Shown here in pieces: positions 9,573 through 30,270 of a stretch of 30,270 bases of DNA. Source of the stretch: a virus (taxonomy: Duplodnaviria; Caudoviricetes); IMG/VR virus record IMGVR_UViG_3300016667_000137, positions 1-30,270 of that record, one strand, 5' to 3'. The notes under the pieces are model-generated. The model worked only from the letters and a program-made list of their open reading frames with translations, ran no database searches and had not been told where the DNA came from. Numbering within the stretch: the stretch's first letter is position 1; every line of letters starts with the position of its first letter. The position numbers were made by a program, and so were the translations under genes.

Positions 9573-9580
9573 TATATTTG
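9573..9580 (+). promoter_or_regulatory. Bacteroidota -7 promoter element for putative sRNA
   Basis: TATATTTG fits TAnnTTTG; no good TTG -33 at the expected spacing. Confidence 0.5.
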
Positions 9581-9584
9581 AGAG

Positions 9585-9655
9585 CCAAAAATCCAAAAGA
9601 CGTTTAATTTTTCGCTTAGGTAAGTCAAACCCTCTAAATTATTTTAGGGGGTTTT
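9585..9655 (+). ncRNA. Putative antisense sRNA targeting early-gene leaders
   Basis: Between -7 element and terminator; 9599-9614 is the exact reverse complement of 9756-9771 and 13/14 complementary to 11311-11324. Confidence 0.6.
9627..9655 (+). terminator. Intrinsic terminator ending lysis/sRNA transcription
   Basis: AAACCCTCTAAA-ttat-TTTAGGGGGTTTT. Confidence 0.75.
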
Positions 9656-9710
9656 GTCATTCATAACCAAGCAGTTACAAAAAACTTGCAAATATTTATG
9701 TGGATAACTC

Positions 9711-9740
9711 TTGTTTATTTAAAATAGTTATGTACATTTG
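9711..9740 (+). promoter_or_regulatory. Early promoter (Flavobacterium-type primary sigma)
   Basis: TTG-N19-TACATTTG, matching the -33/-7 consensus. Confidence 0.82.
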
Positions 9741-13899: not shown

Positions 13900-14167
13900 A
13901 GTGGTCTATAAAGACAATCACGGAGAGGCGTATTGGATTGGATCGGCTTTTGACAAGTACGATGCCATAAGAAAAAGCAAAGCACACCCAACTCAAGTGA
14001 TCACAGCGGAGTTATTTGATGACTACGAAAAGAAGAACCCAATAGATAAGGTAAACGTAAGGAAACAAGATCCTGAAGCATCTGGATGGCTATTCGATGA
14101 GGACTTAGACTTATACAACAGCATGCAGGAAGCAAAAAAAAATAACAAGAAAATGCACGATTTATAA
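13856..14167 (+). CDS. Hypothetical protein
   Basis: ~100-aa ORF ending at next promoter. Confidence 0.55.
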   Translation: MDDMAGKNTFGNFYKVVYKDNHGEAYWIGSAFDKYDAIRKSKAHPTQVITAELFDDYEKKNPIDKVNVRKQDPEASGWLFDEDLDLYNSMQEAKKNNKKMHDL

Positions 14168-14182
14168 TTTTTATTATATTTG
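14153..14182 (+). promoter_or_regulatory. Bacteroidota promoter for replication operon
   Basis: ATG-N19-TATATTTG (-33 element one mismatch from TTG). Confidence 0.7.
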
Positions 14183-14186
14183 TCGA

Positions 14187-14278
14187 AAGTTCGCTCTCAC
14201 ACTATAGGACTTAAAGAAACTGAAACCCTTTAAATGAGTAACGAGGTGAGAGCCGTGAAAGTTTAAGGGGTTTTTTTT
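14187..14278 (+). ncRNA. Structured leader RNA: two hairpins with complementary loops, loop-E motif, terminator
   Basis: P1 14187-92/14207-12; P2 14223-34/14262-73 with U8; loop GCUCUCAC 14193-200 pairs with GUGAGAGC 14246-53; AGUA/GAA internal loop. Confidence 0.7.
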
Positions 14279-14301
14279 ATTTACTTAAATAACGGAATGT
14301 T

Positions 14302-14817
14302 ATGGAATTTTTAGAAAAGGATTTGGAAGAAATCATTTACTTATCTGATAAAGATAAGTTAGGGGACAGAGGTCTTTGTTTAAATGGAAAATTGAAAAGA
14401 CAGTTCAAAATTGGTAATTACGGAATTGCTGATTTAGTTGAATTTGAAAGACCTTATTATCATAAATATTATAATAAATGCATGAAAGGAGTTATAAATG
14501 TATTAGAATTGAAAAAAGATAAAATTGGTGTTAGTACATTTTTTCAAGCATTAAATTATGTAAAAGGAATTAAAACATATTTAGAAGAAAGAGATATGGA
14601 TCACTTGTTTAATTTTACAATTACTTTGATTGGCAGAACTATTGACACCAATAGTTCTTTTTGTTATTTAGGTGATTTATTTAGCCTGGATGTAAGAGAA
14701 TCAGAAATATATGATTGTACTAAAATAAACATACAATTATTTGAATATAAATATGGAATAGATGGGTTAGAATTTGAAGAAAAATATTCTTATAATTTAA
14801 TTGATAAAGGATTCTAA
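14302..14817 (+). CDS. PD-(D/E)XK nuclease, NucS/EndoMS C-terminal-like
   Basis: LEKDLE...RQ...GIADLV...VLELKK...FQALNY. Confidence 0.62.
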   Translation: MEFLEKDLEEIIYLSDKDKLGDRGLCLNGKLKRQFKIGNYGIADLVEFERPYYHKYYNKCMKGVINVLELKKDKIGVSTFFQALNYVKGIKTYLEERDMDHLFNFTITLIGRTIDTNSSFCYLGDLFSLDVRESEIYDCTKINIQLFEYKYGIDGLEFEEKYSYNLIDKGF

Positions 14818-14819
14818 TC

Positions 14820-15551
14820 ATGGCTATATTCAGAAAAATACACACATCATTTTGGTCTGATACATTTATTCAAGATTTAGATAATGACCATAAACTATTT
14901 TACTTATACCTATTGACAAACGAAAGGACTAAACAATGTGGTATATATGAAATATCAAAAAAACAAATATCTTTTGATTTAGGATATAGTATAGATAGAG
15001 TATCTAAACTGCTTAAATACTTTATAGATACCAATAGAATCATGTATTCTGAGCCAACAAAAGAACTTGCTTTAAGGAATTGGACTAAATTTAATGGGTC
15101 AACATCTCCTAAAGTTGTAAGTTGCATAAAATCAGAACTTTTAAACGTAAAAGATACAGTATTAATAGAGTATGTAAATGGTATGTATACTGCTTCGCAA
15201 GAAGAACAAGAACAAGAAGAAGAAGAAGAAAAAGAAGAAGTAAAAGAAGTATATTCTTTCGATGAGTTTTGGTCTACTTATGGTAAGTCAGTTGATAAAA
15301 CTAAATGCAAAGCTAAATTTGAAAAGTTATCTGATGAGGTGAAATTAAAAATAAAAGAGGTACTACCTTTGTACATTCAATCAACTCCAGATAAACAATT
15401 CCGTAAAAACCCTCAAACATGGTTGAATGGTGAATGTTGGAATGACGAGGTAAAAACCATAATGAAAGAAGAAACGGTTGAAGAAATGAATGATCGTATG
15501 CTGTACGAGAATGTAATGAAAAAATTAAACATGTACCATGCTAAAGACTAA
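14820..15551 (+). CDS. Phage replication initiator / replisome organiser
   Basis: FRKIHTSFWSD...LFYLYLLTN...GIY N-domain, acidic linker, FDEFWSTY...NPQTWLN C-domain; precedes helicase. Confidence 0.75.
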   Translation: MAIFRKIHTSFWSDTFIQDLDNDHKLFYLYLLTNERTKQCGIYEISKKQISFDLGYSIDRVSKLLKYFIDTNRIMYSEPTKELALRNWTKFNGSTSPKVVSCIKSELLNVKDTVLIEYVNGMYTASQEEQEQEEEEEKEEVKEVYSFDEFWSTYGKSVDKTKCKAKFEKLSDEVKLKIKEVLPLYIQSTPDKQFRKNPQTWLNGECWNDEVKTIMKEETVEEMNDRMLYENVMKKLNMYHAKD

Positions 15552-16419
15552 AGGAAGTGATATAGACTATCTGTTAAACTACCACAGCGGTAGGATTAAA
15601 ATGGGTGATGGCATCGGTTGTGGATTAGATGACTATTTCAGGCAGAAACGTGGTGAGTTAAATTTAATACTTGGACATGATAACGTCGGAAAGACTTACT
15701 TTATAAATTGGTTCTTTTTATGTCATGCTATCATAAACAACCATAAGGTCATCATGTGGTCAGGAGAAAATAAAACAGGCACCATTTTAAGGGACATGGT
15801 ACAAATGTATTCTGGTAGACATTTTAAATCACTTTCTGTAAACGAAATAACGAACTATTCCATGTATCTTGAGCAGTTTTTTGACTTTGTAGATAATTCA
15901 AAGCTGTACAAGCCAAACGAACTACTAAAATTATTTGAAGAATCAGACGCACAGATATGCCTTATAGACCCTTTCACAGGGTTAGATAGGGAAATGGGTT
16001 ACGAGAGTAACTATCGTTTCTTAAATCAAGCGAGACAGTTCGTAAATCAAACTCAAAAGACATTGTATATAAACACCCATCCAACATCGGAGAGTGGTCG
16101 TAATGGAAATTTGTATACCGATGGAGATTGGAAAGGTCATTTGAAGCCACCATTGAAAGACCATGTTGAAGGTGGTAAGGCTTTTTTGAATAGAATAGAC
16201 AATATGTTAGTTGTGCATAGGCTAATAAAACACGAACACATGAAATTCATAACAATGGTAAACGTAGAAAAAGTAAAAGATACGGACACAGGAGGAAAGA
16301 TAACAGGATTAAATGACCCTGTGATGTGTGAATATAACTCTGGTTTAGGTTTTAAGGTAGGTTTTGTTGACCCATTAGCACCACATAGACCAAAAGTAAA
16401 ATCAAATAATTTATTTTAA
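15538..16419 (+). CDS. DnaB-like (SF4) replicative helicase
   Basis: Walker A GHDNVGKT, WSGEN, Walker B CLIDP, INTHP, VEKVK. Confidence 0.78.
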   Translation: MLKTKGSDIDYLLNYHSGRIKMGDGIGCGLDDYFRQKRGELNLILGHDNVGKTYFINWFFLCHAIINNHKVIMWSGENKTGTILRDMVQMYSGRHFKSLSVNEITNYSMYLEQFFDFVDNSKLYKPNELLKLFEESDAQICLIDPFTGLDREMGYESNYRFLNQARQFVNQTQKTLYINTHPTSESGRNGNLYTDGDWKGHLKPPLKDHVEGGKAFLNRIDNMLVVHRLIKHEHMKFITMVNVEKVKDTDTGGKITGLNDPVMCEYNSGLGFKVGFVDPLAPHRPKVKSNNLF

Positions 16420-17078: not shown

Positions 17079-17606
17079 ATGAATATGAAGAAGTGTAAAA
17101 TTTGTAAAGCTGAGTTTAAACAAGTCTATTCAACAACTCAGTCAACCTGTAGTGTAACATGTGCAGTTATTTTAGCCAATCAAAAAAAGCAAAAGGATTG
17201 GGAGAAAAGGAAACGCAGCGTAAAAGAGGAATTAAGAACGATTCAAGACTATATCAAAATAGCACAGCAAGTGTTTAATAAGTACATAAGGTTAAGAGAC
17301 CAAGGTCAACCATGCATTGCATGTGGAAGTAAAGAAATGAAGAAAGTTAACGCATCACATTTTTATTCCGCTGGTGGACACTATGCAGTCAGGTTTGATG
17401 AGCGAAATGTACATAGTGGCTGTGAGCATTGCAACACTTTTTTGAGCGGTAATCTCTTGAAGTACAGAGAGAATTTATTAGCAAAATTAGGTTATGAAGA
17501 GTTTGAAAGATTGAGTTTTGATGCGATGAAAACACGGAACTACACAAAGGAAGAACTAAAAGAAATAATAGACACCTACAAGAATAAAATAAAAGCCTTA
17601 AATTAG
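17079..17606 (+). CDS. ninG: NinG/Rap recombination nuclease
   Basis: CxxC...FNKYIRLRD...CIACG...ASHF...RFDERNVHSGCEHCN...SGN. Confidence 0.9.
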   Translation: MNMKKCKICKAEFKQVYSTTQSTCSVTCAVILANQKKQKDWEKRKRSVKEELRTIQDYIKIAQQVFNKYIRLRDQGQPCIACGSKEMKKVNASHFYSAGGHYAVRFDERNVHSGCEHCNTFLSGNLLKYRENLLAKLGYEEFERLSFDAMKTRNYTKEELKEIIDTYKNKIKALN

Positions 17607-29230: not shown

Positions 29231-30270
29231 ATGGCACAGAATAGCGCAAAAGGAAGTTCTTATATAACGCCAAGTTTAGATGGCTTAACAGATGTAACCA
29301 TTGCAGGTGCAACCACTAACCAAGTGCTAACGTACAACGGTACTACATGGGTCAACTCTTCCACTCAAGGAGACATGTTAAAATCTGTTTACGACACGGA
29401 CAACGATGGTGTAGTAGATAGTGCAGAAAAACAAGTATTAGATGTTAGGAATAGTACAGGTTCATCTATACCAAAAGGTTCGGTTGTTTATATAAGCGGT
29501 GCAACAGGGCAAATGCCAAACATCACTTTGGCTGATGCAGACACGGAAGTTACCTCATCAAAAACTATCGGGTTAACATTAGATGCAATTGCCAATAATA
29601 CAAATGGTACAATTATAACAAGCGGTATTTTTCACAACATAGACACAAGTGCATTTACAGATGGCGCAAGTTTATGGTTAAGTTCAACAGCAGGCGGAAT
29701 GGTAGCGAGCGCACCACCTGCTGAACCTGCTCACTCTGTTTTTATCGGATGGGTTGCTTATGCTCATCCAACAAACGGAAAAATAGTAGTTGCTATTCAA
29801 AATGGATATGAATTAAATGAGTTACATCAGGTAAGTGTATCAAGTGAAGCTAACCAAGATGTACTTAGATATGAATCGTCTACAGGTCTTTGGAAAAACC
29901 AACAGATTGAAACAGCAAGTGGCTCACAAAAAGGACTATTAAGTTCAACAGATTGGACTACGTTCAATTCAAAGCAGAATGCCATTACACTTACCACAAT
30001 AGGTAACTCAGGTAACGCAACTTTCGTAGGTTCGACTTTAAATATACCTAACTACACAAACTCATTAATTCCAGACCTTAAAGGTCATGAAACATTTAGA
30101 GGTGTAACATTTGCAAACAACTCAACCACGGACACGACATGGGGAGGTGTAACATTAGGTACAACAGCATCTACAATAGCACGTTCAGTAGCATCAACAA
30201 ACTTTGCTTCTAAACAAATTCGTAAAGGTTTCTATGCTTCTGTAGTAAGTACAGGAAGATACACAGGTGT
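29231..30270 (+). CDS. Tail fibre/receptor-binding protein, N-terminal part (519 aa when circularised to 709); not in ORF track
   Basis: ATG directly after previous stop; LDGLTDVTI...NQVLTYNGTTWVN, DMLKSVYDTDNDGVVD, GYELNELH; open to window end and in frame with 2-709. Confidence 0.78.
   Translation, partial: MAQNSAKGSSYITPSLDGLTDVTIAGATTNQVLTYNGTTWVNSSTQGDMLKSVYDTDNDGVVDSAEKQVLDVRNSTGSSIPKGSVVYISGATGQMPNITLADADTEVTSSKTIGLTLDAIANNTNGTIITSGIFHNIDTSAFTDGASLWLSSTAGGMVASAPPAEPAHSVFIGWVAYAHPTNGKIVVAIQNGYELNELHQVSVSSEANQDVLRYESSTGLWKNQQIETASGSQKGLLSSTDWTTFNSKQNAITLTTIGNSGNATFVGSTLNIPNYTNSLIPDLKGHETFRGVTFANNSTTDTTWGGVTLGTTASTIARSVASTNFASKQIRKGFYASVVSTGRYTG
30082..30270 (+). repeat. Terminal direct repeat / circular overlap, right copy
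   Basis: Matches 1-189 with 9 substitutions. Confidence 0.95.

Follow-up and report, generated by a model that had tools for sequence, protein, structure and literature searches.

Several described systems resemble, each in part, the phage leader reported here. In the IncI-alpha/IncB rep system (Inc antisense RNA), a cis pairing between a hairpin loop and a site further 3' forms a pseudoknot that licenses initiator expression. The c4 RNA of phages P1 and P7 is related to the CI system of P4. In the P4 system (CI RNA with seqA and seqC), a short same-strand leader RNA precedes the replication genes, a loop is complementary to an upstream site and premature termination is the presumed output (PMC4825925; cited here, like all other papers, from a part of its text). 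The attenuator cATT of pLS20, which is of the zipper type, stands in front of a long mobile-element operon and has a stem-loop linked by complementarity to an intrinsic terminator on its 3' side; hereby, the upstream sequence extends the terminator stem, so that the two folds are mutually exclusive (PMC13401043). Upstream structure can also suppress intrinsic termination without sequence overlap: in this tug-of-war antitermination, a ligand-stabilised structure abuts the terminator base, a short spacer is required, longer spacers and stronger terminators weaken the effect, and the terms "kissing" and "phage" are absent from the part of the text considered (bioRxiv 10.64898/2026.06.17.733018). 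The putL and putR elements of HK022, about 70-90 nt long with two stem-loops, stand at the start of early phage operons and bind the beta' zinc-binding domain via conserved residues; they are not themselves terminators, and the portion of the put paper considered mentions no loop-loop helix and does not use the word "kissing" (PMC9378689).

The window, i.e. the whole stretch of 30,270 nt analysed here, is an IMG/VR record with a completeness rating of 100%, in which almost every gene (portal, Erf, exonuclease, SSB, initiator, helicase, NinG, terminase, tape measure) lies on the + strand. Its replication operon is headed by a leader of about 90 bases with two predicted hairpins, the tips of which are exactly complementary. 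With P4 CI it shares the same-strand position before replication genes, the loop complementary to an upstream site and the presumed output. Unlike P4 CI and c4, however, it has a built-in predicted intrinsic terminator bearing the complementary letters (the key) on its tip, lacks an Rfam match and, in the window, a downstream seqC-like site (4/49 leaders of the set described below have one), and is carried by phages that mostly lack an integrase and are partly lytic. As in cATT, an upstream stem-loop and a terminator are linked by complementarity, but a stem-extending helix is missing and the pairing is loop to loop. As in the tug-of-war case, upstream structure would act on the terminator without sequence overlap, although from 9-22 nt away, through the apical loop and with no aptamer evident. 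Compared to IncI-alpha/IncB, we found no enrichment of antisense promoters and saw no conserved leader peptide, and the partner is a terminator loop. In its predicted function, the leader would work most like an attenuator. The leader contains a stem and U-tract, i.e. a predicted terminator, and no mutually exclusive antiterminator helix was found among both hairpin arms and the downstream sequence, where self and swapped duplexes are equal in energy (-6.3 versus -6.33 kcal/mol).

All features of the leader lie on the + strand. The -7 box, TATATTTG (14175-14182), is of the TAnnTTTG type, which we take to be the Bacteroidota -7 consensus; with the offset that we assume for this box, transcription would start near 14186-14188. 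The original prediction had set a promoter at 14153-14182, of which the -7 box stands, while the fit is poor for the -33 part near 14153-14156. Hairpin 1 (14187-14212) folds where it had been predicted, with a 6-bp stem (AAGUUC, 14187-14192, pairing with GGACUU, 14207-14212) and a 14-nt loop that starts with kissing site 1, GCTCTCAC (14193-14200). An A-rich single-stranded linker (14213-14222) leads to hairpin 2 (14223-14273), a long, terminator-like structure of about -18 kcal/mol. Its extent and its U8 tract (14271-14278, the predicted termination point) agree with the earlier description, whereas the stem given there as 12 bp has 13 bp with the U-G wobble at its top; the first three U of the tract are able to pair with A14223-14225. 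Above this lower stem follow a 5x4 internal loop of loop-E/sarcin-ricin type (14236-14260; GAGUA 14236-14240, GAAA 14257-14260), a 3-bp inner stem (ACG/CGU, 14241-14243/14254-14256) and a 10-nt apical loop. The AGUA/GAA letters between two helices are present as originally noted and both flanking helices covary among homologs, in which the motif letters themselves are conserved by construction, being part of the search pattern; the non-canonical loop-E geometry is presumed from the motif as we know it. Kissing site 2, the key (14246-14253), is 3'-stacked on the inner stem and is the exact complement of site 1; the original prediction had the apical loop as a whole in this role, and the 8-mer in fact takes up 8 of its 10 nt.

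When loop 1 was shuffled, an 8-nt complement arose in 240 of 200,000 trials. The loop-E arrangement with its helices occurs once in the window, both strands scanned, and the window holds no second copy of the leader element. Hairpin 2 is missing from the list of a terminator scan because its loop exceeds 8 nt. A short ORF from 14234 inside hairpin 2 was considered as a leader peptide and dropped, as it is absent, judged by eye, in most homologs. Just 5' of the nuclease ATG, the stretch 14288-14304 is conserved among leaders with different keys (the window, L022, L025, L060 and L074); in L060 it has 6 nt in common with loop 1 and is perhaps a relic third site.

The leader fills the intergenic gap between the end of the upstream ORF at 14167 and the start of a 171-aa gene at 14302. 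The product of this first gene (14302-14817, +) is likely a PD-(D/E)XK/NucS-like nuclease, on the strength of ESM Atlas leads (NucS_C/PDDEXK_1, a minority of cluster members). The genes for the replication initiator or replisome organizer (14820-15551, +; phrog_6251, E 1e-43), a DnaB-like helicase or primase-helicase (15538-16419, +; phrog_18375, E 5.5e-21) and NinG (17079-17606, +; PF05766, E 4.8e-41) follow. The proposed operon nuclease-initiator-helicase-NinG-sigma is borne out by matches in its three middle members; the "sigma" gene has a weak PHROG match (E 2e-5), and the 171-aa product none in Pfam or PHROG. Proteins of the 171-aa family are virus-enriched, 150-170 aa long, carry PD-(D/E)XK-like motifs, have no Pfam family and mostly adjoin the 5' side of the initiator. 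No other TAnnTTTG box lies on the + strand between 14183 and 15313; since the next one cannot come before 15314, polymerase must pass hairpin 2 and the U8 tract to reach the essential genes.

Elsewhere in the window, a second TATATTTG box stands in the 9573-9660 region before an ordinary short-loop terminator (about 9626-9656) and is overlapped by a 7-nt copy of the loop-2 key (9579-9585). A further -7 box, at 9733-9740, is the likely start of the early recombination cluster. Positions 1-130 and about 30083-30270 share a repeat of ~190 nt with few mismatches in a tail-fibre-like region, which likely reflects a circular or permuted assembly.

Homologous leaders were collected with a pattern of promoter, GAGTA...GAAA and TTT, which gave 119 viral loci (31/64 parts of the collection) and, the window counted in, 102 distinct matches. 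A helix filter blind to loop pairing was passed by 49/102, including the window and one near-identical relative. Every one of the 49 has a perfect upstream complement to its key of at least 6 nt, and 45/49 one of at least 7 nt, with 25 different keys; the loop complementarity noted for the window recurs throughout the filtered set. Among 2352 swapped-partner pairs, those with a common key included, 4.9% reach 7 nt. The filter is conservative, because 18 of its 53 failures also reach at least 6 nt. Site 1 is enclosed by hairpin 1 in 48/49 leaders and the key adjoins the 3' strand of the inner stem in 46/49; the inner stem itself is built from 17 different triplet pairs. The sites are spaced by a median of 44 in this set, the linkers measure 9-22 nt and are 90% A/U, and longer hairpins 1 go with shorter linkers (rho -0.35, the sequences not being independent). 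A T-tract of 6-8 T within 8 nt is found in 49/49, TTT being demanded by the pattern, and begins 15-20 nt after the end of site 2, a distance partly set by the pattern. A negative path-height correlation was set aside as separate evidence, since it reflects a constant sum.

Covariation was analysed in an alignment of 16 sequences that were hand-picked as the window's subfamily and whose relatedness inflates the counts. Hereby, all four helices covary, including the stems and the loop-loop helix for which such a test had been proposed: 93.7% of cells pair and 22/27 pairs show changes on both sides, with 5/5 counted pairs in hairpin 1, 9/11 in the outer stem of hairpin 2 and 6/8 in the kissing helix, which is 96.1% paired. 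Slid registers are 33-51% paired, and 0/500 shuffles reach the observed value. The comparison establishes both hairpins, the loop-loop helix, a fixed spacing and the position between promoter and replication genes. Taken as a nested fold, the leader is unremarkable in stability against shuffles (z = -0.22), as would suit an ordinary terminator whose loop match is accidental, or a cruciform or origin element that acts as DNA. The covariation and swapped-pair controls largely refute this explanation, which we consider scarcely credible; sense-strand stems, moreover, contain 66 G-U against 0 A-C oppositions (G-U being scored as paired by the filter), and a generic scanner run on both strands, with spacing limited to 35-53 nt, finds a single element and nothing besides in each of 20/21 genomes, 20 of which had been preselected as carriers (G030 was missed). 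The real evidence for the element is comparative and does not lie in nested-fold stability. In the same phages, four ordinary terminators have no loop-complementary partner, and site 1 is the sole conserved partner of site 2.

A second set was anchored on the initiator protein. The homolog search gave 63 loci, from which 38 leaders were picked by eye and hence not blindly. Near-duplicates (16) were excluded, as were L048, L028-L030, the leaders of which escaped the regular expression and yet have complementary loops, and L038, L054, L056, L062 and L063, where no leader was seen. In L028 and L029, about 470-680 nt 5' of the initiator, an extra hairpin between promoter and kissing pair makes for a longer leader. 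The loops match over at least 6 nt in 38/38 and at least 7 nt in 36/38 leaders, with 24 keys, and the spacing between the sites has a median of 43 nt (range 37-52, sd 2.7). The loop-E arrangement occurs in 3/38 (L001, L025, L051), and the other 35 have different bulges at a similar stem height; loop E is therefore a subtype feature and optional for the element.

Proteins and tertiary contacts commonly dock on loop E, and shape and spacing are kept in the family while the letters are not. Both points would fit a kissed fold that serves as a compact RNA platform to which a protein or RNA polymerase binds (put-like, N/nut-like or initiator-binding), this binding and not the kiss then controlling termination. 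A promoter-proximal two-hairpin RNA at the head of a long co-directional operon is also reminiscent of putL (PMC9378689). We nevertheless regard such a platform as unlikely: primary sequence is poorly conserved, loop E is missing from most initiator-anchored leaders, and the polarity of the key is swapped between the hairpins when the window is compared with phage elemoA_1-9A, which has the same key with its loops exchanged. A universal partner protein is not supported, as the best small early protein is common to 9-10 of 21 genomes (by blastp, which is insensitive for short proteins).

Cultured carriers were located via their initiator proteins; the element itself, compared with cultured phages by blastn, yielded chance matches of 19-24 nt alone. 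The element precedes the initiator operon in 8/9 cultured Flavobacteriia phages examined. The full loop-E subtype is found in Olleya phage Harreka_1, and a variant of it with one different letter in Flavobacterium phage 11b; phi18:3, phi13:2, phi19:3, elemoA_1-9A, tooticki6-1 and Tenacibaculum phage JQ have the element without loop E, and in RAP44 no element was found in the 170 nt 5' of the initiator. The hosts of these carriers (Flavobacterium, Cellulophaga, Olleya, Tenacibaculum), together with the TAnnTTTG box, point to a Bacteroidota host for the window phage. In dozens of related phages, cultured lytic ones included, the letters of the two loops have changed in step, so that the match persists. 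In cellular genomes, a pattern scan (41/64 parts) gave 120 matches, 7 of which pass the helix filter; 3 of these have the kiss, all on MAG contigs, and the 4 others are one AT-rich Bacilli sequence. One contig in a MAG labelled Thiobacillus (L296) carries an element of Bacteroidota-phage type that is nearly identical to the viral L208, and is probably a mis-binned phage contig. Most genes 3' of loop-E leaders code for initiators (DUF6291, HTH_36 and unannotated types assigned on their sequence), helicases, NUMOD4-HNH nucleases (after 7 leaders) and one antirepressor.

As to how the leader acts, we give about an even chance to the reading that the cis kiss on the terminator tip hinders the closing of hairpin 2 and so sets read-through into the initiator and helicase genes. 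In the nascent leader, loop 1 would pair with the tip of hairpin 2 inside one RNA; the fixed spacing, the 3'-stacking and the trade-off between hairpin and linker length argue for such an intramolecular contact. RNA polymerase holds roughly 14 nt of RNA. With a gap of 15-20 nt, site 2 would thus emerge from the enzyme just when the U-tract is reached, and the 8-bp kiss would tether hairpin 1 and a short linker alongside hairpin 2. Within the exit channel, this tether may work against full formation of the terminator and lower termination, much as in tug-of-war antitermination; loop E, in the one subtype, may make the upper stem more rigid or provide a surface for docking. Since site 2 would become free as the terminator must close, a tethering kiss that lowers termination is favoured. 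Against the analogy stand the linker of 9-22 nt and the strength of hairpin 2, and the kiss could as well have the opposite effect and stabilise hairpin 2. The direction of the effect on termination, and any trigger, are what we infer here. At equilibrium, the kiss and the terminator can coexist, and for this reason a switch cannot be deduced from the sequence. No trigger of the kiss was found; a candidate is an unannotated protein of 60-77 aa with a basic C-terminal helix, often the first gene 3' of the element (L097, L121, L122, L188, L191, L332, L333, L209), which occurs in 7/39 genomes and not in the window.

The distance between hairpin 2 and the first gene bears on a further possibility, namely that hairpin 2 acts mainly on translation or on the stability of the mRNA. 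The kissed domain would then protect the 5' end of the message, or hairpin 2 would keep ribosomes from loading on the first gene, and termination would be a side effect. In many homologs, NUMOD4-HNH genes included, the stem base lies 7-13 nt from the ATG, which points to translation control there. In the window, however, the ATG is 27-28 nt 3' of the stem base, and in others the distance reaches 51 nt, more in either case than the 30S footprint, while the U-tract is kept; we hold this explanation to be quite improbable.

The original prediction had likened the leader to control by P4 CI and P1 c4 RNA. In a self-timer of this kind, the terminated RNA, or hairpin 2 cut at the A/U linker, would bind later copies of loop 1 in trans and block the cis kiss, so that replication genes are turned off or superinfecting phages with the same key excluded. 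The same-strand layout of upstream site and loop does resemble seqA-CI (PMC4825925), the 49 filtered leaders have many different keys, and two elements with different keys occur together in tooticki6-1 (L333:40-210) and in G029 (L360); one second element of this pair precedes a NUMOD4-HNH endonuclease gene. Moreover, a downstream third site of 7 nt is present in 4/49 leaders (L093, L096, L101, L119), where its copy covers the start codon. In these and two other three-site variants, L059 and L051, the site-1 copy overlaps or abuts the start codon.

Most of the evidence speaks against this self-timer. The third site is absent from the window and from 45/49 leaders. Genome-wide, potential trans targets number 1.06 per genome for the own key and 1.21 for swapped keys, with 0 near start codons (18 genomes). 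Diversifying selection on the keys is not supported, as key pairs change about as fast as stem pairs (0.08/0.03, 0.19/0.16, 0.26/0.35, 0.28/0.42 and 0.61/0.51 for key/stem in five similarity bins). No antisense promoter of the TAnnTTTG type is found near the element of the window; in the genomes scanned, an antisense -7 box of this type occurs inside the element in 1/36 and downstream in 3/36, against 3/36 in the control. A tyrosine integrase is present in 2/26 near-complete virus records and three Baltivirus phages, i.e. in 5/38 carriers besides the window; serine recombinase and S24 repressor are found in 0/39 genomes, and the window has none of the three. In addition, the carrier tooticki6-1 is described as lytic (PMC7077304), and true matches in cellular genomes amount to the 3/120 on MAG contigs. 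With no antiterminator helix, antisense promoter, trans target or third site in the window, and with carriers mostly without integrase, P4 CI/c4-style immunity is unlikely for this leader. The proposed P4 CI/c4 logic is not supported, and we rate the self-timer as rather unlikely, too.

In line with the suggestion that the motif was undescribed, Rfam 15 has 0 gathering-level matches in the window (best sub-threshold E 0.15), and 19 homolog loci gave a tRNA alone. A weak likeness concerns RT-14 (RF02921), a hairpin with the same AGUA/GAA loop-E arrangement; the window, however, scores 16.4 bits against a gathering threshold of 48.1 (E 4.7), and no positions beyond the last 53 of the model align. 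No description of the element was found in the literature searched, as far as the portions considered extend, including the main texts of Weinberg 2010 and 2017 and Fremin 2023; likewise, the Harreka paper does not mention it in the text examined (PMC8776804). In the part of Fremin 2023 considered, candidates without names are given for aquatic phages, located 5' of NUMOD4, HTH_36 and Phg_2220_C genes. A possible overlap with these, compared by downstream genes, or with the Weinberg 2017 supplement qualifies the novelty. The element is a real, conserved RNA architecture that is apparently uncatalogued.

A wider proposal is possible but doubtful: the leaders may form a widespread undescribed, protein-free class of phage transcription control, in which a kiss between the tip of an intrinsic terminator and a hairpin 5' of it causes antitermination topologically or sterically without alternative secondary structure, and in which the released short RNA may also feed back as a trans-acting timer or exclusion signal, specific for the key, on the replication genes of lytic Bacteroidota phages. 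The literature searched is silent on how lytic Bacteroidota phages without a repressor control the amount of their replication initiator, and the element stands at just this control point in 20/21 uncultured genomes scanned, 20 of them preselected carriers, and in most of the cultured phages examined. With Harreka_1, 11b, tooticki6-1, elemoA and phi18:3, cultured test systems exist. If the kiss does control the terminator without an alternative helix, the rules of intrinsic termination would be extended, and a regulatory part of 90 nt with exchangeable keys would become available for Bacteroidota.
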